A stretch of 64,000 nt of DNA from a virus (Duplodnaviria; Caudoviricetes): the IMG/VR virus record IMGVR_UViG_3300021426_000063, positions 169,104-233,103 of that record. One strand, 5' to 3'. Position 1 is the stretch's first letter; each line of letters starts with the position of its first letter. Below the pieces are notes generated by a model, which searched no databases, had not been told where the DNA came from, and saw only the letters and a program-made list of their open reading frames with translations. Both the position numbers and the translations under genes were made by a program. This document shows, one piece after another, positions 100 to 18,639 of the stretch.

Positions 100-2355
100 A
101 TGGATAGATTAGAAAACATCAAAAAGTTTGATGAATATATGAATGTCCTCAATGAAGACCTTATTCATGGTGAACAAAAAGATTGTGATAGAGCATTCAT
201 AAGAAGTACTCCAATAATTGACTTTGGTAATGGTGATAAGGTTAAAGCAATTGAAATTGTCAATGCTGTACATGAAGCAACCAGATTATTGGAAGTTAAT
301 CATGGTAGGACATATGAATTTGCAGAGAATACATTGAACATCATTTATCTTGCACATAGTAATAAGATTAAAACTATGGCAGTTGATAAATATATGAATC
401 TTTATATGAATGCAGGTTTCATTTATCATAATTTGAAAATGGACCCAGAACTTATAGGTGCAGTAATTATGCATGAGGCTCTTCATGCTCTTTATGACCA
501 TATTGACAGAAGTATAAACTGGTTGTCTGCAAAAGGAAAACCAAAGACACCAAGTAATTGGCATGATACTAATCTTGCTGCTGATGTTGAGGTGAACAGA
601 ACATTAACCCGTATTGGAGTTATAGAAGAAGATAGACTTATTAATGAGATACATGGTTTGTATCTTAAACAGTTGGATAGATCAACTGGTGTTGTACCTC
701 TTGAAATGATACTTGATAATGAAGAGTATATGCAGAAATTGAGGGAGATGTGTCCTCCTGATCCAGATCCAACGAAGATGCCTTCTACTCCTGAAACTGA
801 AATTGAAACAACAGAAGATTGGGATAATGGATACAAAGATGCCTGGAATAAGGTTGCTGAACTTATTAGAAAGTATGGTGCCAAAGGTGCCTGGGAGAAA
901 CTTATGGATGCTGGTGTTGTGAATGGTGTTGGTGAAATCTATACTAATAAAGAGATAGATGATATTATGGGACTTGAGTTTTTAACTGTCAAGTCTATGG
1001 AGGATTTTATAAATGAAGACCTTAAAGTTGAACCATCAGATAAAGGAAAAACATATAAAGATGGATTTATGAATGCTTTTGGTAAGTTGGTGAATGCACT
1101 TTATACATCCATTAATCCACCAGATGATTGGGATGATGAAGGAAGTGATGGTCCAGAACCTTCAGGTGGAAAAAAGTTTAAATCAAAGATGAAGAAGGAT
1201 GAACTTGATCCAATTAATTTACCACAACCAAAAGGAAAAAAGAAAAAGAAGAAAGATTCAGATGATGATGGTGTGCCTGAAAATATAAATGGTGGTTATG
1301 ATGATAATGAACTTGAAAATGATATAGACAAGAAGACTAATGGAGGTGAGAATAAGATTACAACAAAACAAGATGTTGAGTTTGGTGGAAGAAAAGGTGT
1401 TGGAGGTACAGGTTCATTCCAGGAGGAAGGTTTGTCAGATGATGAATTGAAGAATTCAGGATATAGCACAGAAGACCTTGAAAAGGTTAATAAGGTAAGA
1501 GAGAATAATAAATTCAAAAATACAAAGGCTGGTATTGAGAAAAAGATTGAAAGGATGAAGAGAAATCTTCCTCCAGGTCATCCTATTAAGAAGACTCTTG
1601 ATGCAATTGAAGTTGAGGCCAGTAAGTATAGGAATATCTGGAAAAAGATTCTTAAAGAATTTATGGCCCAGAAAACAAGAAGGGCAGGAACTGATAAATC
1701 AACTGGACACAATGACTGGATAAGAAAGAAGTCAATTGCCAGGGGAGAATATGGTATACATCATCAGAAGACTGCACAGGATCCACAGGATGTGAATATA
1801 TATGTTGATGTATCTGGTTCAATGGATGCTGAACTTCTTGAAATCATTGCAAAATCATTGGTCATCTATACACAACAATGGAAATATTCTGGAATAAATG
1901 TTTGTCCTTGGGCATCTTATAGTGGAGGTGTACATAATGTTGGAGACTTCTATAAGAAAACCGAAGCACAGGTTACAAAGGAAATCCTTGATATTATAGA
2001 TGAAGGTAAATATAAATGTGGTGGAGGTACATCAGGAGATGCTGCCATAGATTCAATGGTTGATTCTGTTGTTGAAACATTGAGTGATTCTAAAAAGAAG
2101 AAGAAAGATGATATCCATGTTGTGATTACTGATGGCTATTTTGATTTTGAAAATATTGAAAACAGAATCAAACAAGCACTTAAATCTGAGATTAATAGAG
2201 ATGATGTTGCAGCAAAAGCACCAAAGAATACAATATGGATGATATATAATGACACTGGTGATTTTAGTGAGTCATTTAAAGATGGATGGAATAATGAGAT
2301 TAAAGAAGGTAGAATCATTTTTATTAACTCAAATGTAGTTAAGAATAATGGATAA
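100..2355 (+). CDS. Putative metallopeptidase (DUF2201-like) + VWA domain protein, partner of the MoxR-type ATPase
   Basis: HEALH (HEXXH) and NLAADVEVN in the N-terminal part; acidic/Lys-rich linker; VWA MIDAS motifs DVSGSM, GGGTS, ITDGY. Confidence 0.8.
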   Translation: MDRLENIKKFDEYMNVLNEDLIHGEQKDCDRAFIRSTPIIDFGNGDKVKAIEIVNAVHEATRLLEVNHGRTYEFAENTLNIIYLAHSNKIKTMAVDKYMNLYMNAGFIYHNLKMDPELIGAVIMHEALHALYDHIDRSINWLSAKGKPKTPSNWHDTNLAADVEVNRTLTRIGVIEEDRLINEIHGLYLKQLDRSTGVVPLEMILDNEEYMQKLREMCPPDPDPTKMPSTPETEIETTEDWDNGYKDAWNKVAELIRKYGAKGAWEKLMDAGVVNGVGEIYTNKEIDDIMGLEFLTVKSMEDFINEDLKVEPSDKGKTYKDGFMNAFGKLVNALYTSINPPDDWDDEGSDGPEPSGGKKFKSKMKKDELDPINLPQPKGKKKKKKDSDDDGVPENINGGYDDNELENDIDKKTNGGENKITTKQDVEFGGRKGVGGTGSFQEEGLSDDELKNSGYSTEDLEKVNKVRENNKFKNTKAGIEKKIERMKRNLPPGHPIKKTLDAIEVEASKYRNIWKKILKEFMAQKTRRAGTDKSTGHNDWIRKKSIARGEYGIHHQKTAQDPQDVNIYVDVSGSMDAELLEIIAKSLVIYTQQWKYSGINVCPWASYSGGVHNVGDFYKKTEAQVTKEILDIIDEGKYKCGGGTSGDAAIDSMVDSVVETLSDSKKKKKDDIHVVITDGYFDFENIENRIKQALKSEINRDDVAAKAPKNTIWMIYNDTGDFSESFKDGWNNEIKEGRIIFINSNVVKNNG

Positions 2356-2390
2356 TTAAACATAAATAAACTATATAAAGTATTTGTACT

Positions 2391-4583
2391 ATGAAAAATT
2401 TAATGAGTAGAAATGAATATCTTCAGAATGTTGAAGAAGGTTTCATCAAAGATACTATTAAGAAAGGATGGGAAAAGGTGAAGTCTTTCTTCAAACTTGG
2501 ATATAAGAAGGTTAAGGATTTCATTGCTGTTATTGATGGGGCTGGTAATGTACTTCCAGTTGTTTCATTTTCAGCAACCATTGATAGGATTGCTGATATG
2601 ACAGGTGTTGATGTATTTGCACCTTCAATGATTTCAGATTTTGTTGTTGAGGCAGGAGGTAATGGTTGTGAAGAGAAAGCGCCATTGATAGAAGATGATG
2701 AGATTTACAACTATGGACCTAATGGTCGTGAAGAGTTTGCATCTTGGATGAAAGACAAGAAATATAAGGAAGAACCAGAGTATAAGAATATGATGACTCT
2801 TACCAAGATGATGGCAGAGAGTAATGGTGTATCAGAAGAAGAGTTTAACAAACTCTTTGAAGATTGGGAAGGAGTTAAAAATGCCAGAGTGAAGTTTGAG
2901 GATGATCAAGAATTAAAGGGAGCAAGAAAAATACATGCTGATAAATTTTCACAGATTCTTAATAAGAAATTAAATGACTGGTCTGTCAGGAGAGGTAAGG
3001 GAAGTGTTGAGATTGATGCCAATGGTAGGAGAAGAGAAGGTGGAGTTATGTCAAACATCTTGGTGTTTGGTGCTCCGGGTATTGGTAAATCAACTGTACC
3101 AAATGCTGTTATTAAAGAGTATAACAGTCGTGTTACAAATCCAGAAGATATGATTTCATTGATTAATATTAACTGTGCAAACATTGATGAAGGTGATTTT
3201 ATGATGCCTACAATGCCAAGAGAAGTTAATATCACAGATGAGATTGAAAATTTCAAGGATGCATTCCCACAGGCAAGTGCTGAACTTGAAAAACTTTCTC
3301 CTGCACAAAAAGAGAAACTTGCAAATGTAATTTATCATAGTAATCAGTTTAAGGCAACAGATGCACCTAAATCCTGGTTACCTTCATATAGAAAGACAGG
3401 TAATGATTTCATTGATAAACTTCTTAATGATGCCGCCAATGGTGGTGTATATAGTAATGATGATGGTTCAGTGAAAGTTGGTGGTGGTGGTATCATCCTT
3501 CTTGATGAGTTCCTCAGATGTAAACCTGGTGTGTTTGGTCAGTTGATGAACTTTTTGAATGATAGAACACTCAATGGTTGGGTACTTGGTGACAGATGGA
3601 CAATCATTGCTTGCTCTAACAGACCTTGTGATGATGGTGAAGTTGCAGAAGCATGGGGTAACTTCCATATAGCAGGTAAAGATAGATGGGGACATATGTA
3701 TCAATTGATTCCAACAGCAGAAGAATGGAAAGAATGGGTAAGAAGTAAAGGTTGGGATGAACTTCTTCTTGAATTTATTTTTGAAGATAGTGAAGAATCA
3801 ATGGCAGGTAAAGAGTATGCAAGATGGCATAGTGGTGTCTTGAATGGTGCAGAAGCAAGTAGTCAGGTGAAACCTATTACTCCCCGTGAATGGGAACGTG
3901 TGTTCAGAGAATTGACAGAGTATGAAATTGAAAATGGTTACAGTGATATTTCAGAAATGACTATGGAAGAAATTGATGATATATTGGGTGGTGCTTTTGA
4001 TGATGATTTTGTAGAAGAAATTAAGGATTGGTTGGAAGACCACAAGGATAAGATTGACCTTGATAAAGTTATGAATAATCCAGAAGATGTTTATATGCCA
4101 AAACAGTTCATCAATGACCCTGCAAAGGCACTTATACTTATTCAAAGTCTTTATAAGGATTTTGCTAGAAGATATAAAGATGACATTGATGGATTTACAG
4201 ATGAGCAACTTGCTAACATATGCTTATGGTTAGGTATTAATTATAAAGATGATTATCAAAATGTATATGGATTTGTTGATAAACTCACAAAGACTGTATT
4301 GAAAGATAAATCAGATCATAATATTACTAATTACATAAAGACTATGCAAGTATTGATGGCAGGATATCCTTTGAAAGGTTTTGAAGAAGATGTTGAATAT
4401 GGAGAACAAAATCAAAATTGGCCAGAAGGAAGTCTTGAAATTATCAAAGACCTTATGCGAAAATATTTCCCTTGGAGAATTGATGGTGATAAGATTAATT
4501 ACTTTGATAATTTTGATATGAGTGAAGTTGAAAAATATTCTGCAAAAATCAATACAATTGGTGATAAAGTAGAAACAGAATAA
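2391..4583 (+). CDS. MoxR/AAA_5-type AAA+ ATPase
   Basis: Walker A GAPGIGKS, Walker B IILLDE, sensor-1 ACSN, TPREW sensor-2; adjacent to a VWA gene. Confidence 0.8.
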   Translation: MKNLMSRNEYLQNVEEGFIKDTIKKGWEKVKSFFKLGYKKVKDFIAVIDGAGNVLPVVSFSATIDRIADMTGVDVFAPSMISDFVVEAGGNGCEEKAPLIEDDEIYNYGPNGREEFASWMKDKKYKEEPEYKNMMTLTKMMAESNGVSEEEFNKLFEDWEGVKNARVKFEDDQELKGARKIHADKFSQILNKKLNDWSVRRGKGSVEIDANGRRREGGVMSNILVFGAPGIGKSTVPNAVIKEYNSRVTNPEDMISLININCANIDEGDFMMPTMPREVNITDEIENFKDAFPQASAELEKLSPAQKEKLANVIYHSNQFKATDAPKSWLPSYRKTGNDFIDKLLNDAANGGVYSNDDGSVKVGGGGIILLDEFLRCKPGVFGQLMNFLNDRTLNGWVLGDRWTIIACSNRPCDDGEVAEAWGNFHIAGKDRWGHMYQLIPTAEEWKEWVRSKGWDELLLEFIFEDSEESMAGKEYARWHSGVLNGAEASSQVKPITPREWERVFRELTEYEIENGYSDISEMTMEEIDDILGGAFDDDFVEEIKDWLEDHKDKIDLDKVMNNPEDVYMPKQFINDPAKALILIQSLYKDFARRYKDDIDGFTDEQLANICLWLGINYKDDYQNVYGFVDKLTKTVLKDKSDHNITNYIKTMQVLMAGYPLKGFEEDVEYGEQNQNWPEGSLEIIKDLMRKYFPWRIDGDKINYFDNFDMSEVEKYSAKINTIGDKVETE

Positions 4584-5236: not shown

Positions 5237-6370
5237 TTAGATAAGCATTGCATCAAACTCATCATCAGAGAAACATTTTTCTATCTCATCAATATTGAAA
5301 AGGTTCTTCTTCTGAAGGTCATTGACATCTTTTATTGTTTCCTTGGTATTGATTGTTTTGAGATATTGTCCCCATAGGAACACAGGTTTGTGTTCTTTGA
5401 GTTTCTTCAATGATTTCTCTCTTCCAGTCTTGTCATTGTCAAACAGATATCTCACAGTCTCCACCTCATCAAAGAATCCATCCAGATGCTTGGCAGCACT
5501 CTGTAAGGCAATGGAGTTCGCTATCGCAAGTGAATCAATAGGACCCTCCATAATGGTGAGAGGTTGACTCATATTGACATTCATAATATTGAAAAGACCG
5601 GACAGTCTGTCAAGATTGGCCACAATGTTCTCAATACCATCCTCTTCATCAATGTACTTCTGACCAAGTGGTTCTTTAAGTAGAAGTCTTTCTACAATAC
5701 CATTGATGTCCTTGTTGAACACATCTGAATATATCTTTGTCAATCTACTTGACATATATCTCTGCTTATTGGATTTAGGATCCAGTTGTCTTATCTGATA
5801 ACCTATCACCCTATCAGATGGAGATATGTTCAGGATATAGAGTTCCATTGTTGAAGGATTGTATGCAAAGTACTTCCAATCCTGGATACCAATCATCCTT
5901 GATTTGAGATAGTTTGATACTTCCTGGTTCTTATAAGGAGAGATGATTCCCAGTTGTTTGAAGAGTATCATCTTTGGTATTGCCAGTTTATCAAGGAGAG
6001 TCATTGACATTGATGCCTGGTTTCCTGATACTTTCCTCTCAAACTTCTTTGCATTCTGTTGGATTTCATGGATAACAACCCTATCATCAATGGACAGTTC
6101 TTCACCAAAGTCTGAAAGAAGTCTATTTACACCAGTAGAGTGTGAGCAATTGAAACAATGATACCTGAGAGAATCAAGATAAAGGTTTCCTCTCTTCTTT
6201 CTTACATCAGTTCTGCTATCATTGCAGTAGACACAAGCAAAGTTAAGTCTATCATGATAGACATCAATCTTTCTTTTGATATAACTATCATTTGCAAACT
6301 TCTTATTTAATATGTTCTGAATTTTACCTTTGATATTTTCAATGGTTGTATTCTCTGAATCTGTCATCAT
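5237..6370 (-). CDS. DNA primase, T4 gp61-like (start probably ATG 6370 rather than 6409)
   Basis: Zn finger CVYC...CFNC with KKRGNLY; TOPRIM motifs EGPIDS, FDND, KDVND. Confidence 0.85.
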   Translation of the reverse strand: MMTDSENTTIENIKGKIQNILNKKFANDSYIKRKIDVYHDRLNFACVYCNDSRTDVRKKRGNLYLDSLRYHCFNCSHSTGVNRLLSDFGEELSIDDRVVIHEIQQNAKKFERKVSGNQASMSMTLLDKLAIPKMILFKQLGIISPYKNQEVSNYLKSRMIGIQDWKYFAYNPSTMELYILNISPSDRVIGYQIRQLDPKSNKQRYMSSRLTKIYSDVFNKDINGIVERLLLKEPLGQKYIDEEDGIENIVANLDRLSGLFNIMNVNMSQPLTIMEGPIDSLAIANSIALQSAAKHLDGFFDEVETVRYLFDNDKTGREKSLKKLKEHKPVFLWGQYLKTINTKETIKDVNDLQKKNLFNIDEIEKCFSDDEFDAMLI

Positions 6371-6605
6371 AAACTGAATCATAAATGTCCTGGAGACTAA
6401 ACTGACCATACTTGGAATGAAGTTCAGACATCATTCCATCTTCTTTCTCTTTGATTGATTTCAAGGTTTTTTCAAGTTCAATGACCTTATCTTGAATCTC
6501 TTCTGCTTTCTTTTGATATACAAACAGTTCTTCAGAGACATTCCTGTACTCTTCAACAATGTCTCTGATTTCTTTTGATTCCTGTTCTGTGAAGTTAATC
6601 TTCAT
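6339..6605 (-). CDS. Hypothetical coiled-coil protein (88 aa)
   Basis: Overlap-coupled between GroES and primase; heptad-like E/K-rich sequence. Confidence 0.7.
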   Translation of the reverse strand: MKINFTEQESKEIRDIVEEYRNVSEELFVYQKKAEEIQDKVIELEKTLKSIKEKEDGMMSELHSKYGQFSLQDIYDSVYDDRFREYNH

Positions 6606-6867
6606 CTTTTACAATCTTTGCAAAAACAAATCCTTCCTTTATACAATCATATTTTACACCATCTATCTTGATTGGTGTTGACCTGCCAATAGGTTTTACA
6701 ATGATGTCACCTTCTTTGAGTATTGAACCATCATATACTTTCAACACCCTGGCAAATCTGTTGTATTGTTCATCTGGTATATATAAACCAGATTTAGTTA
6801 TATTCTCATTCTTTATGTCCTGGATGAGTATATAACCATTCTTCATTTCTATTGGTATGTTATTCAT
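6595..6867 (-). CDS. groES: GroES/Cpn10-like co-chaperonin
   Basis: 90 aa with NGYILI, mobile loop TKSGLYIPD and LKEGDIIV. Confidence 0.75.
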   Translation of the reverse strand: MNNIPIEMKNGYILIQDIKNENITKSGLYIPDEQYNRFARVLKVYDGSILKEGDIIVKPIGRSTPIKIDGVKYDCIKEGFVFAKIVKDED

Positions 6868-6871
6868 ATTG

Positions 6872-6884
6872 TAAATATAACAAA
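6872..6884 (-). promoter_or_regulatory. Putative middle-class promoter TTTGTTATATTTA
   Basis: Exact 13-mer at - 6872, 39023, 46592, 46784, 60182 and + 21147, 42313, 57706, 58081; variants at + 55083 and - 41462; each copy lies just upstream of a gene start and points into that gene. Confidence 0.75.
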
Positions 6885-7023
6885 AGACAATAACTTCTAA
6901 AAAAACATAATTTATTAATTGAAAAATATGTATTGAAAGTCCTAATATATTAGATATGTTGTTTTATAAAGATACTTATTTGTACTATTGTACATAAATA
7001 TTATATAAAAAAGTAAAGTTTAT

Positions 7024-7566
7024 ATGAATTATTATATAGCATTGGAGATGGTAGGATATTCATCTGTGAGTAGTTTCTTGAGTAGTCTTGGTGAAAAACC
7101 AACATATGGTACTTGTGAAGATTTTTCAGATCCTTTTAATAGTTATACACCTGATAGCCAATTTCACAGTAGAAATACTGGTTCTAGTACTGGTCAATGG
7201 TATCCATCTCCAAAATCCTATAGTGGAACAACATATGCATTATATAGAATTGATGGATATGAATTAGATAATTTTGATATAGGAACTCTTGCTGCCCGAG
7301 ATGATATTCATAGTTCTCTTTGGTTATATGTGAATGATAGTGGTGCAAGTGGTGATCAGATAGTATATCTCAATAAATATGTTGCACCAACTTTAACATC
7401 TATATCAATTAAGATTGGAGGTTCATATGTGTCATCAAGTACAAGTATAAAGGTAGGTGAACAAAAGGAAATACAAATAATTGGAAATTACAGTAATGGT
7501 GAGACTAGGAATATCACTACTTCTGCATCATTGACACGTAGTAATACAAATATAAGTATTGTATAA
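7024..7566 (+). CDS. Cassette 1: variable N-terminal domain + truncated (N-part) Big_2-like Ig domain
   Basis: Own CATAAATA (6993) and terminator; C-terminus PTLTSISIK...IKVGEQKEIQIIGNYSNGETRNITTSASLTRSNTNISIV-stop. Confidence 0.75.
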   Translation: MNYYIALEMVGYSSVSSFLSSLGEKPTYGTCEDFSDPFNSYTPDSQFHSRNTGSSTGQWYPSPKSYSGTTYALYRIDGYELDNFDIGTLAARDDIHSSLWLYVNDSGASGDQIVYLNKYVAPTLTSISIKIGGSYVSSSTSIKVGEQKEIQIIGNYSNGETRNITTSASLTRSNTNISIV

Positions 7567-7572
7567 ATTAAG

Positions 7573-7599
7573 GACTTCTTTTTAGAAGTCTTTTTTTTT
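7573..7599 (+). terminator. Intrinsic terminator after cassette 1
   Basis: GACTTCT-tttt-AGAAGTC followed by T9. Confidence 0.75.
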
Positions 7600-7664
7600 A
7601 TCCAGAAAATTCCAAATGATATTGCATAAATAACATATATTTAATAATTAGATTGTTTAGAGTT

Positions 7665-8171
7665 ATGGCAGCAGGAAGTGTTATTTGTGTTGAATCAAGT
7701 ACAAGTTATATAAATACATTCAGAAATTCATATGGCAGTAATTTGACAGTGTATAATGGTGATGCTATAATTTATAATGTACCTACTAATGAATGGATAA
7801 AAATTAAAACATTTAATAATAAATATTATGCTTGTGCTTATGTTGGTAGATTTGTAGGATCTTCAGCAAATTTAAATGTTATAAATTCTGGGTCTAATAC
7901 ACCTAAAAAATGGGTATATGATACAAGTACAAGTATAGTTGACCCAGATTTTCAGGGAGGTATGACAATTACAGCATATTTATTAAAAGAATATGTCCCT
8001 GCTGTTACATCTATTTCAGTTACAGTAGGAGGTTCATCTGGAAGTACATCAGTTAAGGTAGATGAGCAAAAGGAGATTGTGGTTACAGCAAATTATGATG
8101 ATGGTTCTACTTCTACTGTAACACATAGTGCAACATTGACACCTAGTAATTCAAATATAAGTATTGTATAA
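7665..8171 (+). CDS. Cassette 2: different N-terminal domain + the same truncated Big_2-like Ig N-part
   Basis: Own CATAAATA (7625); ATG 7665 preferred over TTG 7653; C-terminus PAVTSISVT...VKVDEQKEIVVTANYDDGSTSTVTHSATLTPSNSNISIV-stop. Confidence 0.75.
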   Translation: MAAGSVICVESSTSYINTFRNSYGSNLTVYNGDAIIYNVPTNEWIKIKTFNNKYYACAYVGRFVGSSANLNVINSGSNTPKKWVYDTSTSIVDPDFQGGMTITAYLLKEYVPAVTSISVTVGGSSGSTSVKVDEQKEIVVTANYDDGSTSTVTHSATLTPSNSNISIV

Positions 8172-8193
8172 AAATCTTAATTATAATATATAT

Positions 8194-8227
8194 AAATGAC
8201 CTGTCTTATTTGACTGGTCATTTTTTT
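8194..8227 (+). terminator. Intrinsic terminator after cassette 2
   Basis: AAATGACC(t)GTC-ttattt-GAC(t)GGTCATTT followed by a T-run. Confidence 0.65.
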
Positions 8228-8272
8228 ATTTCCCATAAATAACTTATATGAAAATAACATAAGTATATAGAT

Positions 8273-8494
8273 ATGGAAAATGACATTCAAACAATTTCCT
8301 ATATCAATTTGGGAGATGGTCAGGAACACCCAATAGATGCTGTTTCAGTTGGTGGAAAACTTGGTGAAAATATCCAGGTGACCAATAATCTTGTTACATC
8401 TGTGAATTCAAGTTCATCAGATACACAATATCCATCTGCAAAATGTGTATATACATTGATAGGTGATATAGAAACTCTTTTGAGTAATATTTAA
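8273..8494 (+). CDS. Small fibre-associated/adaptor-like protein (73 aa), paralog of 63257-63529
   Basis: HPIDAVSVGGKLGENIQV.NNLVTS......DTQYPSAKCVY shared with the gene at 63257; late promoter at 8234. Confidence 0.7.
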   Translation: MENDIQTISYINLGDGQEHPIDAVSVGGKLGENIQVTNNLVTSVNSSSSDTQYPSAKCVYTLIGDIETLLSNI

Positions 8495-8511
8495 AAAAAA
8501 TGATTTAATTT

Positions 8512-11500
8512 ATGGCAAAATATGTAAAGGGTTTAAATGCTGGTTCCTCAACATTGACTGCAACATATTCAGGTAAAACTGCTAGTATTAATATAACAGT
8601 TAATAAGGGTGCTGGAACTTTAGGTAGTGCTGATGCATTATCTGACCATGAATATCGTACAGGTCCACATACATATACATTAACAGTTACAGGAGCATCA
8701 GGAAGTGTATCATTTAACACAAGTTCATCATATTTAACTGTTACAAAAGATGGAAGTTCTTATAATAAATCTGGATGGTCAGTTACATCTACTGGAGGTC
8801 TTGCAACTGCTGCTTCAATAAATGCTGGTACATATACAGTTAAGTGTTATGTTACATCTGCTGCAACCACTAATTATAATTCAGTATCTGGATATTTAAC
8901 TTGGACATTTAAAATTACAAAAGCCACACCAACCTGTTCAATATCAATACCTGATTATACATATGGTGGAACAAAATCTAATTATAATTTCTCTGCTAAT
9001 ATGGGTGTTGGAAGTGTTGATGTATATCTTAACTCAACCAATTCAACATCTGGTGGAACATTGTGGGGTAATGCAACATCTACAACATTGAATGCTGGTA
9101 CAAGATATATATATGCAATTGTTGGTGCTGGAACAAATACAAATGCAGTTACTGTTGGACCAACTGCTTTTACAATCAGTAAAGCTAGTCAGTCTGCTCC
9201 AACTGCATCAGGTAATTCAAGTACATATTCAACATCTGGTTCAATTAGTGGTAGTGCATCAGGAGGTGGAGGTGTTGGTACACTTTATTATAAGGCAGAT
9301 ACATCAGGTGGAACAAGTTATGGTACAGCTGCAACATCTGTATCAAGGTCAAGGTCTTCTGTTGGTACAACAACCTTTGTTGCTTACTGGAGTGGTAATG
9401 ATAACTATAATGCATCACCAAATTCAAATCAAGCAAGTCTTGTTATTGGTAAAGCAGATCAGTCTGCTCCAACAGCATATGGAGATACAAAATCATATGG
9501 TTCAACAGCAACTGCAACAACATCTGGTGGTGGCGGTCAGGGTTCTATTGAATGGTCTAATGGTAGTACAAGAACAGATGTTGGTTCACAGACAACAAAA
9601 GCAAGATGGTCTGGTAACAGTAATTATAATGCATCAGGTTGGTCTAATGAGGTAACACTTAAAATCAACAAAGCAGATCAGTCTGCTCCAACACCAAAAG
9701 GATCATCAAGTACTTATTCATCATCTGGTTCAATTAGTGGTAGTGCATCAGGAGGTGGAGGTCATGGTTCACTTTATTATAAGGTTGATACATCAGGTGG
9801 AACCAGTTATGGTTCTGCAACAACTACTGCACCTTCAAGAAATAGGAACTCTGTTGGTACAACCACTTTTGTTGCTTACTGGGGTGGTGATGGTAACTAT
9901 AATGCATCACCTAATTCAAGTCAGGCAAGTCTTGTTATTGATAGAGCAGGTCAGCCTGCTCCAACTGCAACAGGTTCATCAGTAACATATCCTAATACTG
10001 CAACTGCATCATATTCAGGTGGTGGAGGTGTTGGTACGCTTACTTGGACAAATGGTAGTTCAAGATCTGCAATTGGTTCACAGACAACAAAGGCATATTG
10101 GAGTGGTAATGGTAATTATTATGCTTCTGGATATTCTAATGAAGTAACACTTTCTGTATCTAAATATACACCAACCATTTCTTTGTCTGCAACAGATAGG
10201 ATATATAATGGTAATGCCCTTTATGCAACAGCAACAGTATCTGTTCCTTCTGGTGGTAAAACTATGAAAGGTACTATTTATTATGGTACATCTTCTGGTT
10301 CAACATCATATAGTGTATCCTATAGTGGTTCTGCTGTATCATTGAGTTCAGTGAGTGTAACTAACTATAATAGTGGTTCTGGTAATTCAGTAACTGTATT
10401 TGCTTACTTTGTACCTGACAGTACTTGTAATGATGTATATAATAGTTCAGGCAATGCAAGTAAGACTATGACCATTACTGGTCCTACAAGTCAGTCTGCT
10501 CCAACAGCAACAGGTGCTTCTTCTCAATATGCAACATCTGGTTCAATTAGTGGTAGTGCATCAGGTGGTGGTGGGCATGGTACACTTTATTATAAGGCAG
10601 ATACTAATGGAGGAACAAGTTATGGTTCTGCTGCAACATCTGTATCAAGGTCAAAGAGTTCTTTGGGTACAACAACCTTTGTTGCTTACTGGGGTGGTGA
10701 TGGTAACTATAATGCATCAGGTAATTCTAACCAGGCAAGTCTTACTGTTGTAAAGGCAGATCAATCTGCTCCAACAGCAACCGGTTCATCAGTAACTTAT
10801 CCTAGTACTGCAACTGCTTCTGCATCTGGTGGAGGCGGTCAGGGTTCTATTGAGTGGTATAATGGTAGTTCAAGGTCTGCCATTGGTTCACAGACAACAA
10901 AGGCAAGATGGTCTGGAAATACATATTATAATGCATCTGGATATTCTATTGAGGTAACTCTTTCAGTTGCAAAATATACACCAACTGTTACATTGTCTGC
11001 AACAGATAGAGCATACAATGGTAATGCTTTATATGCATCAGCAACAGTATCTGTACCATCAGGAGGTAAGACAATGAAAGGTACAATATACTATGGTACA
11101 TCTTCTGGTTCAACATCATATAGTGTATCATATAGTGGTTCTTCTGTATCATTGAGTTCAGTAAGTGTAACTAATGTTGGTTCAGCAACAGTATATGCTT
11201 ACTTTGTACCTGACAGTACTTGTAATGATGTATACAATAGTTCAGGTAATGTAAGTAAGACATTTACTGTTAGAAAGGCTGATCAGGATGCTCCAACAGC
11301 AACTGGTTCATCAGTTACTTATCCTAGTACTGCTACTGCTTCCGCTTCAGGTGGAGGTGGTCAGGGTTCTATTGAATGGTATAATGGTTCATCAAGAAGT
11401 TCTGTTGGTTCACAGACAACAAAAGCAAGATGGTCTGGTAACAGTAATTATAATGCATCAGGTTATTCTAATGAAGTAACTCTTTCAGTTGCTAAATATA

Positions 11501-14500
11501 CACCTTCTGTAACATTGAGTGTAACTGATAGGAAGTATAATGGAAATGCACTTTATGCAACAGCAACTGTATCAGGTGCATCTGGTGGTGCAACTCCAAA
11601 GGGAACTATTTATTATGGTACAAGTTCAGGTTCAACATCATATAGTGTTTCATATACTGGTTCTTCTGTATTATTGAGTTCAGTGAGTGTAACTAATGTT
11701 GGTTCAGCAACAGTATATGCTTACTTTACACCAGATTCTACTTGTAGTGGTGTCTATAATAACTCTGGTAGTGCAAGTAAGACATTTACTGTTAGTAAGG
11801 CTGACCAATCTGCTCCAACAGCAACAGGTGCAACAGTTACTTATCCTAGTACTGCTACTGCTACTGCTACAGGTGGTGGTGGTCAAGGTACACTTACTTG
11901 GACTAATGGAGATACACAAAGTGGTGCTGGTTCAAAAACAACAAAGGCTTACTGGGCTGGTAACAGTAATTATAATGCATCAGGTTATTCTAATGAAGTA
12001 ACACTTAAAGTTAACAAGGCTGCTGGTTCTACTGGTGTATCAACATCAGCAATGTCAATTACTTATAGTACAACATCTGCAACAAGAACAGTATCTGGAA
12101 ATACAAATACTGTATCTGTTTCTTCAAGTAATGAAAATATTGCTACTGTATCAATTTCTGGTTCAACTATTACAGTAAACAGAATTGGTTATGGTAGTGC
12201 AACCATAACTGCTTCTGTTGATGCTGCTACTAATTATGAGGCAGCAACATCATCATTCACAGTTACTAATTACAAGGCTGCTGGTAGTGTTAAGACTGCA
12301 CCAGCCAATAATGGTGCAACATATGGTTCAGGAAGTTATTTGTGTACAACAGGTGCTTCTGATACAGGTACAATGTATTATAGACTTGGTACAAGTGGAA
12401 GTTATAGTACAACAAGACCAACAACAAGTGGACTCAATGTTGGTTCATATACATTGTATTACTATGCTGCTGAATCAACTAATTACTATGCAACAAGTGC
12501 TGCATCTATTACAGTTACAGTTGTACAGGCAAATGGTTCAGTTGCTGGTAATGTTACTGATAGAACATATAATACTTCAGGTCAGACTGTAGGTACACTT
12601 ACATCTGCAACTGGTGATTATTATCTTGGATTTGGTAGTTCAACATCTTCTGGTCCATCATCTTGGGGAACAAAGAATGTTAATACTATTTCTGCAACAA
12701 CAGCAGGAACATATTATGTTTGGGCAAAATGTGATGCTTCTACAAATTATAAAGCTGTTGGTGCGACATACATTGGAAAAGCAATAATAAGTAGGGCATC
12801 AACCAATGCTCCTGTTCTTGTTGCCGGTGGTACAACAACATATACAGGTTCAACCTATTATGCTACTGCTGCCAATGGTAGTGGTAACCCTTCTGGTACA
12901 ATCAAGTATGGTGCAACATCAGGTGCTTCTACTTACAGTATGACAGCAGGTACTGCTGCTAATATGACAAGTATGGGTAGAAGTGATGTTGGTACAACAA
13001 CCATCTATGCCTTCTTCCAACCAACAGATACAACCAACTATTCTAATTCTGGTGTTGCATCAACAACTGTAACCATTACTAAACCAGCAGGTGGTTCAGG
13101 TAGTGTAACAATGTCAGGTTGGACATATGGTGGAACAGTAACTAACCCTAATCCATCATCAAGTACTAATGGTACAAGTAATGTATCTTACACCTGGTAT
13201 GATTCTGGAAAGACAGCTTTGTCATCAAAACCAGGTTCTACTTCAACAGCAGGAACATATTATGTAAAGGCAACCTTTGCTGCCACTACAAACTATACAG
13301 AATACACAACTGATTATGTATCATTCACAATCAGTAAGGCTACTGGTTCAGGTAGTGTAACAATGTCAGGTTGGACATATGGAGGTACTGTAACAAATCC
13401 ATCACCATCATCAAGTACTAATGGTACAAGTAATGTATCTTACACCTGGTACAATTCAAGTAAGACAGAGTTGTCAAGTAAGCCAGGATCCAACTCAACA
13501 GCAGGAACATATTATGTAAGGGCAACCTTTGCAGCAACAGCAAACTACAATGCTGTGACAACAGATTATGTATCATTCCCAATCAGCAAGGCAGCAGGTA
13601 CTCTTTCAGGTAGTACAACTAATAGTACATATAATGGTTCAGGACAGGTTATTGGTACAATAACATCTACCACAGGTACATACTATCTTGGATTTGGTAG
13701 TTCTGCCACATCTGGTCCATCATCTTGGGGTTCAGCAAATACATCACTTTCAGCAACCAATGCCGGAACATATTATGTATGGGCATACTGTGATGCTTCA
13801 ACTAACTATAATGGTGTTGGTTCAAAGTACATTGGTCCAGCAACAATATCACAGAAGTCAGTTACAGTCACAGCAGCATCAGATTCAAAGGTATATAATG
13901 GTACTGCATTGACAAACAATACTGCATCCATCAGTGGTCAGGTGAGTGGTCATACACTTAACTCTGTAACGGTAACAGGTTCACAGACAAATGTTGGTTC
14001 ATCTTCCAATGTACCAAGTGGTGCAAAGATTTATTCTGGTTCAACAGATGTTACAAGTAATTATAGTATTACTTATACAAATGGTACATTGACTGTTTCA
14101 AATGCAACCATCACAGTATCTGCACCTAACCAGAGTTATACATATACTGGTTCAGCACAGGGTAATGCCATTACAGTAACAACTGTTAACAGTCAGACAG
14201 CAACCATCAAGTATGGTACAACATCTGGTACATACAATTTGACATCAGCACCACAGATAACCAATGTTGCTGAATCAAAGACTATCTACTATAAGGTAAC
14301 TGCACCTAACCATGCTGATAAGACAGGTTCTTATACATTGACTATAACCAACAAATCAATCTCTATACCTACTCCAACAAGTGTATCAAAGACCTATGAC
14401 AGGACAGCATACAGTGCAACCTTTGGTGCTGCAACTGGTGCAACAATAACCAAGTGGAGATACTCAACAGATAACTCTACTTGGACAGAGACATCAAGTG

Positions 14501-17500
14501 GTAATCCAACACAGACCAATTATGGTACACTTTATGTCCAGGCATATTATTCTGCAAACACAAACTACACAGGTAGTAATTGGTCTGCATCTGCAACCAT
14601 CTCAATAGCAAAGAGGGAGGTAACCCTTACTTGGGGTACACATACTTGGACATATGATGGTGGTGCAAAGACTGTTACTTGTACTGCTGGTAATGTTGTT
14701 TCAGGTGATACTTGTACTGTTACATTAAGTAATCAGAGTAGGACCGCTGCTGGTTCACAGACAGTTACAGCAACAGGTTTGAGTAATTCAAATTATAAGT
14801 TGCCATCATCTACTACAACAACATTGACTATAAACAAGGCTACATTGACTGTTGTTGAGTCAAGTTATAGTGGAACATATGATGGAAACAACCATTCAAG
14901 TACTGTTAAGGTAACAAATTCAGACTGGACAGGTAAGACCATTGTTTATGGTTCAAGTACATCTTATGGTTCAACTGCAACAACTACTGGTACTTATAAT
15001 ACAGCATATGCAGTACATACTGCAAAGGATTACACATCATCAATAACTATCTATTATAAGATTACTGGTGATGACAACTATAATGACTTTGCTGACAGTG
15101 TAACCTTCCAGATTGGTAAGGCAACAGGTACACTTACTGGTAGTACATCAAACAAGATATACAATGCATCATCACAGGTTATTGGTACAATATCTTTCAA
15201 TACAGGTACATACTATCTTGGTCTTGGTAGTTCAACTACATCAGGTCCATCATCTTGGGGTTCAGCAAATAGTTCACTTTCTGTAAAGGATGCTGGAACA
15301 TACTATGTATGGGCAAAGTGTGATGGTTCAACCAACTACAATGCTGTATCAGCAAAGTACATTGGTCCAGCAACAGTATCACAGAAATCAGTTACAGTTA
15401 CTGCCGGTTCAGCAGAGAAGGTATATAATGGTACTGCATTGACCAGTAGTAATGCAACAGCAACTGGTCTTGCAAGTGAGAATCACCATCTACATTCTTG
15501 GACTTGTACTGGTTCACAGACCTATGTTGGTTCCGGTCCTAACACTGCAAGTAATGCCAAGATTTATGAAGGTACTCATAATGGTACAGAGATTGATGTA
15601 ACATCTAATTACAGTATCTCTTACAGTCAGGGTATATTGTCAGTTACAAAGGCAACACCAGTTGTGACAGTTACGGGTGTAACAGCAGACTACACAGGTG
15701 GTTCATTCTATTCAACTGCAAAGGCCAATGCAATTGGTACATTCTATTGGAAGAAGGGTTCTGCACCTACAACATCATCTTATGATGGTAGTGTTGAGTT
15801 GTCTACATTGAACACAGCAACCAATGCTGCTTTTGTAAAGAACAACTCTGATGACTTTGAGATGTTCTGGTTGTTTGTTCCAAGTGGTACAGCAACCATT
15901 GCATCAGGTCAGACATACTCTGCCAACTTCAGTTCTACATCAAGTGGTAGTTCAGGTGTCAACCTCATCATTAATCCAAGAGATATATCAAAGGTATCTG
16001 CATCAGTAGCATCAGTCACATACAATGGTTCACAGCAGACTGCATCAGTAAATGTAACTGATACAGCAACCATCACTTCGAGTGATTATACCATCTCTGG
16101 TAATACTGGAACCAATGCTGGTAATTATTCAATCACCATCACAGGTAAGAATAACTACACAGGTACAAAGACCATCACCTGGACAATAAATAAGAAGTCT
16201 GTCACAGTTACAGCTGGTTCAGCATCAAAGGTATATGATGGTACTCCATTGACAAAGACTGATGGTGTAACCACAACAACACTTGGTACTGGAGACCATC
16301 TCCACTCATTCAAAGTAACTGGTTCAATCACCAATGTTGGTATTGAAAACAATGTATTGAGTGAGATCAAGATTTACAAGGGTACTCATAATGGTACAGA
16401 AACAGATGCAACAAGTAACTATACCATCACTTCTGAAAATGGTACATTGATTGTTAACAATGCAACAATCACAGTATCTGCACCTAATCAGGAATACATC
16501 TATAACGGTTCAGCCCAGGGTGCTGCTATCTCTGCATCTGCTGTTGGTGGTCAGACAGCAACCATCAAGTATGGTACAACAAATGGTTCTTACACATTGA
16601 CAACAGCACCACAGATAACAACTGTTGCTGAATCAAAGACCATATACTATCAGGTGACTGCACCTAACCACACAACAAAGACAGGTTCATACACTCTTAC
16701 TATCAAGAAGTTCACAGTCAATGCAACTGCAACCAATCAGTCAAAGACCTATAATGGTACCGCATTGAATGCTGAAAACACAGGTAGTATAGTTGAGACT
16801 CTTCCTACTGGACATACCATTACTTATAGTTGTACTGGTTCACAGACCAATGTTGGTTCATCTGCCAAGACTTTGTCATCTGTAACTATCAAGAATGGTT
16901 CAGGTACAGATGTGACTGCAAACTTCACAGTCAATAAGAACAATGGTACATTGACAGTTAATGCAGCAACCATCACAGTATCTGCTCCTAAACAGTCATA
17001 CACATATGATGGTAATAAGCATGGTAATGCTATCACAGTAACAACTGTGAACAGTCAGGAAGCAACCATCAAGTATAGTACATCATCAACAGGTACATTC
17101 ACAACAACTGTTCCACAGATTACTAATGTTGCTGAATCAAAGACTATCTACTATCAGGTGACTGCACCTAACCATATTGACAAGAGTGGTTCATATGAAT
17201 TGGAGATAACTGAAAAGTCAATCTCTATTCCAGCACCAACTGCAAAGGAAGAGACTTACACAGGTACAGCATATTCAGCATCCTTTGGTTCTGCTACTGG
17301 TGCAACCATCACCAAGTATCAGTACTCATCAGATAACTCTACTTGGACTGATTCAAACACCAATCCAACCAGGACTGATGCAGGTACAACTTATGTGAGG
17401 GCATACTACACTGCTGGTACTAACTACAAAGGTAGTGGTTGGTCAACTAGTACAACCATCAAGGTTAACAATGCTACAATGACAGTGTCTGCACCTAACC

Positions 17501-18639
17501 AGAGTTATATGTATAATGGTTCATCTCAGGGTACTGCAATATCTGCTACAACAGTTAACAGTCAGGCCACAACAATCACCTATGGTACAACATCTGGTTC
17601 ATATACATTGTCATCTGCTCCAAAGATAACCAATGTATCAGAATCAAAGACTATCTATTATAAGGTGACTGCACCTAACCATAATGATAAGACAGGTTCA
17701 TACACATTGACTATCACCCAGAGGGCAATCACCTTCAAGGCTGATGATCAGTCAAAGGTATATGATGGTACTACATTGTCAGCAGAGAACACTGCAACAA
17801 GAGTCACATCAACAGGTAATGCTCTTGTTTCCGGACACACTGTTGCATTCACCTGTTCAGGTACACAGACAGTAGTTGGTTCATCTGACAAAACCTTGTC
17901 AACTGTAACCATCTATGATGCATCTACCAATAATGTATCTGCTAACTATGCAATCACAAAGAACAAGGGTACATTGACTGTTACAGCAAGGACTGTTACA
18001 TTCACAGAACCTACATTCAACAGTGATACATTGACATACAACAAGTCATCAAAGACTCTTGCTTCTGGTGCAACCTGTTCTGCCGGTGGAGTTATGTATT
18101 ACTATGCATCAACATCATCAACACCTGCTACATTCTCTACAACCACTTGGAGTACTGATTCAGCAAGTGCAGTTAATGCAGGCACATATAATGTATGGTA
18201 TTATTGTTATGTAGTAGATACAGATAACAACACAGGTACAGGTATCAACACAGCAAATAAGATGAGTGGTACAAAGACCATTGGTCAGAGGGAGGTAACA
18301 CTTACCTGGGGTACAAGAACATGGACATATGATGGTTCAGCACACTCAACAACCTGTACTGCTGGTAATCTTGTTTCTGGTGATACTTGTACTGTGACAT
18401 TGACTGGAAACTCAATAACAGAGATTGGTTCACAGACTGTGACAGCATCTTCATTGAGTAATCCAAACTACAAGTTACCAAGCAACAACACAGCAACCCT
18501 TACCATTGAACCAGGTATGTTTGTTAAGTTGAGTGGTTCTTGGACAGTAGTTAAGAAGATATACAAGAAGATATCAGGTCATTGGACAGAACAGTCATTT
18601 GACTCATTGAGTACAGATGATTTCTATGTCAAGAGATAA
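8512..18639 (+). CDS. Giant Ser/Thr/Gly-rich Ig/MBG-repeat fibre or adhesin-like virion protein (3375 aa)
   Basis: No signal peptide; many internal beta-sandwich repeats; starts with the C-terminal strands of a Big_2-like domain; C-terminal FVKLSGSWTVVKKIYKKISGHW motif resembles phage fibre anchor motifs. Confidence 0.8.
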   Translation: MAKYVKGLNAGSSTLTATYSGKTASINITVNKGAGTLGSADALSDHEYRTGPHTYTLTVTGASGSVSFNTSSSYLTVTKDGSSYNKSGWSVTSTGGLATAASINAGTYTVKCYVTSAATTNYNSVSGYLTWTFKITKATPTCSISIPDYTYGGTKSNYNFSANMGVGSVDVYLNSTNSTSGGTLWGNATSTTLNAGTRYIYAIVGAGTNTNAVTVGPTAFTISKASQSAPTASGNSSTYSTSGSISGSASGGGGVGTLYYKADTSGGTSYGTAATSVSRSRSSVGTTTFVAYWSGNDNYNASPNSNQASLVIGKADQSAPTAYGDTKSYGSTATATTSGGGGQGSIEWSNGSTRTDVGSQTTKARWSGNSNYNASGWSNEVTLKINKADQSAPTPKGSSSTYSSSGSISGSASGGGGHGSLYYKVDTSGGTSYGSATTTAPSRNRNSVGTTTFVAYWGGDGNYNASPNSSQASLVIDRAGQPAPTATGSSVTYPNTATASYSGGGGVGTLTWTNGSSRSAIGSQTTKAYWSGNGNYYASGYSNEVTLSVSKYTPTISLSATDRIYNGNALYATATVSVPSGGKTMKGTIYYGTSSGSTSYSVSYSGSAVSLSSVSVTNYNSGSGNSVTVFAYFVPDSTCNDVYNSSGNASKTMTITGPTSQSAPTATGASSQYATSGSISGSASGGGGHGTLYYKADTNGGTSYGSAATSVSRSKSSLGTTTFVAYWGGDGNYNASGNSNQASLTVVKADQSAPTATGSSVTYPSTATASASGGGGQGSIEWYNGSSRSAIGSQTTKARWSGNTYYNASGYSIEVTLSVAKYTPTVTLSATDRAYNGNALYASATVSVPSGGKTMKGTIYYGTSSGSTSYSVSYSGSSVSLSSVSVTNVGSATVYAYFVPDSTCNDVYNSSGNVSKTFTVRKADQDAPTATGSSVTYPSTATASASGGGGQGSIEWYNGSSRSSVGSQTTKARWSGNSNYNASGYSNEVTLSVAKYTPSVTLSVTDRKYNGNALYATATVSGASGGATPKGTIYYGTSSGSTSYSVSYTGSSVLLSSVSVTNVGSATVYAYFTPDSTCSGVYNNSGSASKTFTVSKADQSAPTATGATVTYPSTATATATGGGGQGTLTWTNGDTQSGAGSKTTKAYWAGNSNYNASGYSNEVTLKVNKAAGSTGVSTSAMSITYSTTSATRTVSGNTNTVSVSSSNENIATVSISGSTITVNRIGYGSATITASVDAATNYEAATSSFTVTNYKAAGSVKTAPANNGATYGSGSYLCTTGASDTGTMYYRLGTSGSYSTTRPTTSGLNVGSYTLYYYAAESTNYYATSAASITVTVVQANGSVAGNVTDRTYNTSGQTVGTLTSATGDYYLGFGSSTSSGPSSWGTKNVNTISATTAGTYYVWAKCDASTNYKAVGATYIGKAIISRASTNAPVLVAGGTTTYTGSTYYATAANGSGNPSGTIKYGATSGASTYSMTAGTAANMTSMGRSDVGTTTIYAFFQPTDTTNYSNSGVASTTVTITKPAGGSGSVTMSGWTYGGTVTNPNPSSSTNGTSNVSYTWYDSGKTALSSKPGSTSTAGTYYVKATFAATTNYTEYTTDYVSFTISKATGSGSVTMSGWTYGGTVTNPSPSSSTNGTSNVSYTWYNSSKTELSSKPGSNSTAGTYYVRATFAATANYNAVTTDYVSFPISKAAGTLSGSTTNSTYNGSGQVIGTITSTTGTYYLGFGSSATSGPSSWGSANTSLSATNAGTYYVWAYCDASTNYNGVGSKYIGPATISQKSVTVTAASDSKVYNGTALTNNTASISGQVSGHTLNSVTVTGSQTNVGSSSNVPSGAKIYSGSTDVTSNYSITYTNGTLTVSNATITVSAPNQSYTYTGSAQGNAITVTTVNSQTATIKYGTTSGTYNLTSAPQITNVAESKTIYYKVTAPNHADKTGSYTLTITNKSISIPTPTSVSKTYDRTAYSATFGAATGATITKWRYSTDNSTWTETSSGNPTQTNYGTLYVQAYYSANTNYTGSNWSASATISIAKREVTLTWGTHTWTYDGGAKTVTCTAGNVVSGDTCTVTLSNQSRTAAGSQTVTATGLSNSNYKLPSSTTTTLTINKATLTVVESSYSGTYDGNNHSSTVKVTNSDWTGKTIVYGSSTSYGSTATTTGTYNTAYAVHTAKDYTSSITIYYKITGDDNYNDFADSVTFQIGKATGTLTGSTSNKIYNASSQVIGTISFNTGTYYLGLGSSTTSGPSSWGSANSSLSVKDAGTYYVWAKCDGSTNYNAVSAKYIGPATVSQKSVTVTAGSAEKVYNGTALTSSNATATGLASENHHLHSWTCTGSQTYVGSGPNTASNAKIYEGTHNGTEIDVTSNYSISYSQGILSVTKATPVVTVTGVTADYTGGSFYSTAKANAIGTFYWKKGSAPTTSSYDGSVELSTLNTATNAAFVKNNSDDFEMFWLFVPSGTATIASGQTYSANFSSTSSGSSGVNLIINPRDISKVSASVASVTYNGSQQTASVNVTDTATITSSDYTISGNTGTNAGNYSITITGKNNYTGTKTITWTINKKSVTVTAGSASKVYDGTPLTKTDGVTTTTLGTGDHLHSFKVTGSITNVGIENNVLSEIKIYKGTHNGTETDATSNYTITSENGTLIVNNATITVSAPNQEYIYNGSAQGAAISASAVGGQTATIKYGTTNGSYTLTTAPQITTVAESKTIYYQVTAPNHTTKTGSYTLTIKKFTVNATATNQSKTYNGTALNAENTGSIVETLPTGHTITYSCTGSQTNVGSSAKTLSSVTIKNGSGTDVTANFTVNKNNGTLTVNAATITVSAPKQSYTYDGNKHGNAITVTTVNSQEATIKYSTSSTGTFTTTVPQITNVAESKTIYYQVTAPNHIDKSGSYELEITEKSISIPAPTAKEETYTGTAYSASFGSATGATITKYQYSSDNSTWTDSNTNPTRTDAGTTYVRAYYTAGTNYKGSGWSTSTTIKVNNATMTVSAPNQSYMYNGSSQGTAISATTVNSQATTITYGTTSGSYTLSSAPKITNVSESKTIYYKVTAPNHNDKTGSYTLTITQRAITFKADDQSKVYDGTTLSAENTATRVTSTGNALVSGHTVAFTCSGTQTVVGSSDKTLSTVTIYDASTNNVSANYAITKNKGTLTVTARTVTFTEPTFNSDTLTYNKSSKTLASGATCSAGGVMYYYASTSSTPATFSTTTWSTDSASAVNAGTYNVWYYCYVVDTDNNTGTGINTANKMSGTKTIGQREVTLTWGTRTWTYDGSAHSTTCTAGNLVSGDTCTVTLTGNSITEIGSQTVTASSLSNPNYKLPSNNTATLTIEPGMFVKLSGSWTVVKKIYKKISGHWTEQSFDSLSTDDFYVKR
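9181..12020 (+). repeat. Intragenic repeats: 8x (K)AxQSAPTA...GGGG units and 3x KYTP...YNGNALYA units
   Basis: QSAPT-type units start near 9181, 9451, 9670, 9943, 10489, 10753, 11275, 11797; KYTP units at 10162, 10972, 11494; high nucleotide identity. Confidence 0.85.
13093..13590 (+). repeat. Tandem duplication of an 84-aa MBG-like unit (252-nt period)
   Basis: GGTTCAGGTAGTGTAACAATGTCAGGTTGGACATATGG at 13093 and 13345. Confidence 0.85.

Follow-up and report, generated by a model that had tools for sequence, protein, structure and literature searches.

In chaperone-usher pili and type V pili, an immunoglobulin (Ig)-like subunit lacks its terminal strand or strands, which are supplied by the terminal extension of another subunit, leading to very stable non-covalent chains. 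SpyTag/SpyCatcher and related systems are engineered split Ig-like (CnaB) domains, in which the bulk of the domain and a short peptide from one terminus come together spontaneously and are locked by an isopeptide bond. In the baseplate tripod of the Lactococcus phage Tuc2009, the C-terminal hairpin of BppU completes the sheet of BppA domain 2, forming a composite titin Ig-like domain; BppA domain 1 resembles carbohydrate-binding domains (PMC4742702). The nozzle of the Pseudomonas podophage A1002 is split over two genes and rebuilt by beta-strand complementation, as resolved by cryo-EM (PMC13730344). Within the literature on donor-strand or strand-complementation joints in phage fibers, nothing closer than these two phage systems was found. 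Here, we analyzed a stretch of 64,000 nt (hereafter the window), representing the last 64 kb of the 233-kb IMG/VR virus record IMGVR_UViG_3300021426_000063 (Caudoviricetes; record completeness 62%, CheckV estimate). It carries two small genes, cassettes A and B, and the gene of a giant fiber of 3375 aa, which together appear to encode one Ig-like domain in two pieces.

The explanation we favor, and consider probable though far from certain, is a split Ig domain that is completed non-covalently in trans and yields alternative caps. One Ig-like (Big_2/Big_3-type) beta-sandwich would thereby be encoded as two pieces on separate genes: in a small late protein, the protein's own N-terminal domain would be followed by an acceptor half of about 60 residues that covers the opening portion of the sandwich, and the other 30-33 residues, the donor peptide, would form the beginning of the giant fiber. 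Once both proteins have been translated, the donor strands would slot into the acceptor half, and the rebuilt domain would tie the small protein non-covalently to the N-terminal end of the fiber. With one donor and two acceptors (one to three in relatives), each fiber could receive one cap or another, resulting in a mixed population without DNA rearrangement, and in relatives the same joint would link successive fiber segments as a general connector. We infer the binding, its stoichiometry and the cap role from the anatomy described below; as the capped end may be either the distal one or the one attached to the virion, "cap" is a safer word than "tip".

Compared with the known systems, the resemblance to Tuc2009 is the closest, an accessory protein with its own N-terminal domain sitting on a phage adhesion device and having its sheet completed by strands of a partner, which in our case is predicted. 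The comparison refers to architecture only and claims no sequence relationship. In Tuc2009, a baseplate protein donates two strands from a C-terminal hairpin to a single acceptor, whereas here the N-terminal 30-33 residues of a 3375-aa fiber would serve as donor, comprising about three strands as read from the Big_2 sequence pattern; furthermore, there is a choice of two to three acceptors whose N-domains are unrelated, and the joint would also link fiber segments in relatives. A1002 shares the encoding of a phage tail domain on two genes, but there a beta-propeller/platform has a single fixed partner, in contrast to an Ig domain with alternative partners. The pili exchange one strand and depend on a periplasmic chaperone plus usher, or on a protease, whereas here about a third of the domain would be donated between cytoplasmic products of a phage. 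Neither a chaperone nor an usher was among the results of the Pfam and PHROGs searches run, and the neighboring genes are phage genes. SpyTag/SpyCatcher differs in being engineered; here the split occurs in nature, and nothing points to isopeptide chemistry.

Anatomy of the cassettes and the fiber start

The cassettes, the 73-aa gene, the fiber gene and the signals between them lie on the plus strand. Cassette A (P0001, 7024-7566), delimited by open reading frame (ORF) analysis, BLASTP and HMMER, encodes 180 aa with a unique N-domain (aa 1-117) and an acceptor half (aa 118-180, 7375-7563), terminating in ...SNTNISIV followed by TAA. Cassette B (P0002, 7665-8171) encodes 168 aa, composed of a beta-sandwich N-domain (aa 1-109) and an acceptor half (aa 108-168, 7986-8168), which, modeled alone, consists of three strands and a loose tail. 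An earlier note, made from the sequence of this DNA, had described the N-terminal parts as unrelated and the C-termini as homologous up to the same final residue, and both statements hold: the comparison of P0001 with P0002 by BLASTP gave an E value of 0.45 for the former, while the last 63 residues share 59% identity (E 2e-21) and both proteins end in ...SN(T/S)NISIV, then TAA. On the nucleotide level, the last 41 nt of the two cassettes (7526-7566 and 8131-8171) are identical at 38 of 41 positions, compared with only 53-68% upstream, and the similarity stops at the stop codon. This block could be a short recombination anchor or reflect a strong constraint on the last strand.

The giant fiber gene P0004 (8512-18639) encodes Ig-like and MBG/YDG-type repeats and, as the note had stated, starts abruptly within a domain, its first residues MAKYVKGLNAGSSTLTATYSGKTASINITV being the continuation of the acceptor segment in intact Big_2/Big_3-type domains. 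Due to an in-frame stop two codons before its ATG, the ORF cannot be extended upstream. By alignment to intact domains, fiber residues 1-33 (8512-8610), delimited by Pfam, hidden Markov models (HMMs) and conservation, correspond to the missing strands in the form of a terminal extension. An intact copy of the junction also exists inside the fiber as had been noted, SSSNENIATV running directly into SISGSTITVNRIGYGSATITA, with the latter starting at aa 1204 (nt 12121); the intact internal domain around it (about aa 1170-1255, 12019-12276) aligns with the split junctions. As one continuous polypeptide, the cassette-fiber domain does not exist in the window or in seven relatives, where the parts are kept apart by a stop codon, a terminator and one or more genes.

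Joining the pieces in silico gives scores around the Pfam cut-off for Big_3 (PF07523), which is 21.2 bits. The join of cassette B and fiber scored 22.6 bits (profile positions 17-68 of 68) and that of cassette A and fiber 21.0 bits, in both cases with the match crossing the junction; fiber residues 1-35 alone reached 16.1 bits, and neither acceptor half alone obtained a Big_3 score in Pfam. The assignment to Big_2 in the earlier note is thus best given as Big_2/Big_3-type: the rebuilt domain stands at the Big_3 threshold with Big_2 not listed, and distant homologues of the acceptor half carry PF02368 (Big_2) or PF07523.

An exhaustive HMMER search with P0001 detected its N-domain in one other representative family only, and its C-terminal segment matched internal Ig repeats of many large multi-Ig proteins. 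One of these, P0013, reads ...VTWISSNTLVATI and then SAGGLATGVSAGSTPIVAILSG without interruption, being the counterpart of ...SNTNISIV and then MAKYVKGLNAGSSTLTATYSG. HMMs built from the acceptor half and from the donor peptide were run on 88 such large multi-Ig proteins. The acceptor-like segment stood ahead of the donor-like segment in 77 of 91 cases, and the projected gap between the two, evaluated for 78 pairs, amounted to 0-5 residues in 68 of them and was most often 0-1. Consequently, the gene products represent parts of one domain that abut exactly, without overlap or missing residues.

Each cassette has a promoter motif and a terminator of its own, in line with the earlier description. 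The motif CATAAATA, located by motif count, precedes cassette A (6993-7000), cassette B (7625-7632) and the gene P0003 for a 73-aa, fiber-repeat-like protein (8273-8494; motif at 8234-8241) at a distance of 30-40 nt, and none is found directly upstream of the fiber. Within the window it occurs in 19 copies versus 6.1 expected (a count of 19 was reached in 0 of 100 shuffles), the majority placed 25-40 nt ahead of an ORF start, on either strand. As a candidate late promoter, it resembles the T4 late promoter TATAAATA. Further sites in the window include positions 67, 2361, 39039, 42842, 47730, 51556, 55097, and 63536. Terminator-like hairpins with a U-run follow cassette A (7570-7600; -13 kcal/mol, z -2.9) and cassette B (8194-8229; -14 kcal/mol, z -4.9, with none of 200 shuffles as good). 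Because no CATAAATA lies between P0003 and the fiber, these two genes probably form one transcription unit. A 207-nt contig from a bovine-gut metatranscriptome library is colinear with 8408-8609 without differences and runs from the 3' part of P0003 into the beginning of the fiber gene; it is compatible with co-transcription, although it may also stem from DNA carry-over.

Conservation of the cut among related loci

From at least six samples, seven related metagenome loci (L003-L009) were recovered. Their acceptor halves are located at the end of an ORF in 12 of 12 cases and their donors at the start of an ORF in 7 of 7, which shows that the split pattern is not due to chance. The close cassette homologues are all stand-alone proteins of 146-180 aa ending at the same residue. 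Neither the seven loci nor the homologue searches contained a relative with cassette and fiber fused: a search for longer (fused) homologues of P0002 returned one weak Ig match only, and the acceptor-half profile, run against longer proteins, recovered only the stand-alone close relatives. Looking for further genes with the same ending in the own record, as the earlier note had suggested, added none: the 233-kb record, scanned for acceptor halves, contained none beyond those of A and B.

At least three unrelated types of N-domain (A, B, and C) are combined with the common acceptor half. Cassette numbers differ: L003 has a single one, the window has two, as do L004, L006, and L008, L005 has B and C at a minimum, and contig pieces suggest three for the phage of run X3. 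When the window is compared with L003, the donor shows 89% identity with a ratio of nonsynonymous to synonymous differences (pN/pS) of 0.21 (pS 0.31, pN 0.06), compared with 30% identity over the next 215 codons. For the acceptor half the identity is 80%, versus 50% for its N-domain. As the synonymous sites have diverged (pS 0.31), this conservation is not only the result of recent recombination, and the donor peptide is, judged from these substitutions, under purifying selection.

A second joint, between segments of the fiber, was found in two of the relatives. In L005, a 518-aa protein carries the MAKYVKG donor at its start and a type-2 acceptor half at its end (...SDTGSLIEFNKTENI). After this half the sequence continues with TAA TAT TAA ATG; the gene that starts there opens with MATIKGIKAGTTTINVSY, a second donor type. 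The N-terminus of this next protein aligns best with residues 1143-1387 of the window fiber, the region with the intact internal domain, and a multiple alignment places the L005 cut at the junction within this domain. Directly before its MAKYVKG fiber (TAA-T-ATG), L004 has a 550-aa protein that likewise ends in a type-2 acceptor but has no donor at its start; judging by its sequence, it would be a third, larger cap. The joint that aligns with the intact domain of the window is interrupted by a stop and a new start in both L005 and L004, and homologous joints exist in fused and split states among close relatives. By this pattern, the cut may serve both the capping and the chaining of fiber segments.

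Predicted docking and competing explanations

AlphaFold2 (AF2) modeling of the P0002 family gave a confident N-terminal beta-sandwich (residues 1-109) and a C-terminal part of only three strands, the last 11 residues being loose. This part superposes on about 52 of the 82-89 residues of PKD/FnIII domains and, according to the model, is an incomplete domain when taken alone, a beta-sandwich short of strands. A complex prediction with ESMFold2 for P0002 residues 100-168 and fiber residues 1-40, both supplied as alignments, reached an ipSAE of 0.59 versus 0.01 for the best control, a result classified as "weak support". Of 80 solved complexes in the benchmark of this procedure, 58 attain the mark, as do 2 of 110 mismatched pairs; passes with an ipSAE of 0.60 or lower comprised 7 of the 80 solved complexes and both passing mismatched pairs. 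Three runs shared at least 95% of the contacts with a predicted local distance difference test (pLDDT) value of the partner of at least 75, whereas unrelated partners scored 0.00-0.01 with pLDDT per side down to 42-52. Docking of the small proteins by strand complementation, as the earlier note had proposed, is consistent with this weak pass as well as with the conserved cut, the exact fit, the selective conservation and the lack of fused forms.

The proposed function as a tip did not find such backing. The N-domains yielded nothing significant against Pfam and PHROGs and nothing at E <= 0.001 in Foldseek comparisons with PDB and BFVD. The best match in a wide VIA-align search was the N-terminal/CBM-like sandwich of a pullulanase with a Z score of 5.2, which is inside the noise range stated for the tool, and in the ESM Atlas the matches by shape stayed at a TM score below 0.5, with no usable match by features. 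As the N-domains belong to no family and the fold matches are weak at best, we make no functional call. A receptor- or glycan-binding tip that diversifies host range or mucus binding was accordingly supported by none of the tests.

Several points weigh against the favored explanation. Its basis is comparative sequence analysis together with a weak structural prediction, and the likeness to solved Ig domains may by itself produce a weak ESMFold2 pass of this kind. The Pfam support lies at the threshold only, the join with cassette A falling at 21.0 versus 21.2 bits and Big_2 being unmatched. The pN/pS of the acceptor halves is moderate (0.4-0.9, in short comparisons), and given the 38 of 41 identical final nucleotides, recombination or gene conversion could account for part of the conservation. 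Moreover, two acceptors would compete for a single donor, and both need not be in use. When the L005 joint was modeled by AF2 with its two TAA codons translated (as Gly; 8-row alignment), the mean pLDDT was 40, too low for the model to count either way.

A mosaic locus such as this one, in which the number and kind of cassettes vary from one (L003) to apparently three (the phage of run X3), in which the regions beside the halves diverge fast and in which a near-identical block of 38/41 nt ends both cassettes, might also be seen as a product of module shuffling. Recombination in Ig-coding DNA would have swapped 5' modules of the fiber and left truncated 5' ends behind, the half-domains being inert tails and the small proteins acting alone or doing nothing. 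We judge this rather unlikely: no relative carries the whole domain at this position, the fiber start is always the donor, every cassette has a promoter motif, a terminator and an intact ORF, and the stop position is identical across N-domains of only 50-60% identity. Purifying selection on the donor in spite of diverged synonymous sites (pS 0.31, pN 0.06) is likewise not explained by relics. Quite improbable, in our view, is a different arrangement in which the halves are functional without being mutual partners, with the acceptors dimerizing or docking on another virion protein and the fiber strands inserting elsewhere, e.g., into the baseplate, the capsid or the 73-aa protein. It would fit the constant position of the 73-aa gene between cassettes and fiber, and only a single pairing was modeled in silico, with weak support. 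In intact homologues, however, the two pieces are exact neighbors that neither overlap nor leave out residues, unrelated control partners gave scores of 0.00-0.01, and the own record (62% complete) holds no other acceptor, with other donors not scanned for.

That the pieces become covalently joined after all, whether through a DNA rearrangement carried by some of the phages, through splicing or trans-splicing of the RNA, or through bypassing or recoding at the ribosome, is hardly credible. A 10-nt microhomology between cassette B and the 5' end of the fiber (ACATTGAC region) and the second joint of L005, in frame through its two TAA codons, would suit such a mechanism; neither was counted as positive support. 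Against it, an Rfam search (E up to 1) over 6000-9500 returned a chance miRNA match only and no intron, ribozyme or other RNA family. In three independent DNA runs, contigs that start in the end of cassette B continue colinearly across P0003 and into the fiber (e.g., 8082-8616 and 7986-8608), the RNA-library contig is colinear over the fiber start, and no DNA joint fusing a cassette to the fiber was present in the independent bovine-gut contigs. The only joints seen in contigs were those with a cassette N-domain swapped for other sequence, i.e., mosaicism. Both cassette stops are TAA followed by terminators, and the frames at the joints vary by locus, TAA-T-ATG in L004 being out of frame and 340 nt plus a gene separating the parts in the window. 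An intein or splicing was rejected because splicing elements were not found and the frames are inconsistent; an assembly artifact was rejected because independent assemblies agree.

The surrounding locus and what the joint would mean

P0003 is 92-95% identical among the relatives. A tblastn search with it yielded 163 metagenomic relatives, most of them over residues 30-73 only, and many unrelated phage loci from metagenomes contain its C-terminal motif, SSSDTQYPSAKCVYTLIGDIETLLSNI. The scan of metagenomes with P0003 contributed L009 as the sole added instance of the split, most other returns being unrelated phages with the C-terminal fiber motif only. A more distant locus (L010) has a 97-aa homologue of P0003 ahead of a different fiber and no cassettes. 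Feature matches in the Atlas pointed to phage fiber repeats, fibritin C and head fiber, and are leads only. In L008 (1886-1990), a stop shortens the 73-aa gene to 34 residues, cassettes and fiber being intact there; the gene may truly have been lost, or the contig, which has low coverage, may be misassembled.

Bacterial fibrillar adhesins are known to contain MBG_2/YDG-type repeats. In the fiber, the C-terminal half (13600-18639, aa about 1700-3375) matched MBG_2 with 32.1 bits (cut-off 25), in addition to YDG and MBG_3, whereas nothing was reported when Pfam was searched with the whole fiber protein. The extreme C-terminus is a short duplicated motif, FVKLSGSWTVVKKIYKKISGHWTEQ, and not an Ig repeat; it might be a virion anchor.

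The genes around the cassettes and the fiber are those of a phage, including a primase, an ATPase, collagen-like and other fiber proteins, glycosyltransferase-like ORFs and several very large ORFs. Two large ORFs (24085-29100 and 53233-54630) have a common N-terminal motif (...F/YxGxxxxxSxFxxNVxxxRPLDVRxVVDSxxDLTNGSIxxPYxGxVVNIxGT...), which suggests a common attachment domain on two different fiber or spike proteins. The window stretch is present mostly in bovine and goat gut metagenome sequencing runs. Positions 6900-9500 had no DNA match in the phage record collection, and scans of IMG/VR with P0001 and P0002 as queries retrieved no relatives.

If the favored explanation, i.e., the split Ig domain completed in trans, is true, it would represent a natural, enzyme-free attachment of interchangeable modules to a very long phage fiber, and a route to variation in host range or adhesion without DNA rearrangement. 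The joint, of about 60 plus 30 residues, is recognizable from sequence. It would explain giant fiber genes that start or stop in the middle of a domain, which are otherwise read as pseudogenes or assembly errors, and would offer a natural pair of split-Ig tag and catcher for protein engineering. As homologous joints exist fused and split in close relatives, the idea is directly testable. More tentatively, and with doubts prevailing, we put forward that the split Ig joint could be a universal connector of the whole lineage, chaining fiber segments head to tail and accepting any of several separately transcribed caps. If so, one phage would carry mixed giant adhesin-like fibers, and the lineage would reshuffle caps and segments by moving whole genes, a protein-level alternative to tail-fiber gene recombination, DNA inversion, and diversity-generating retroelements for varying what the virion binds.

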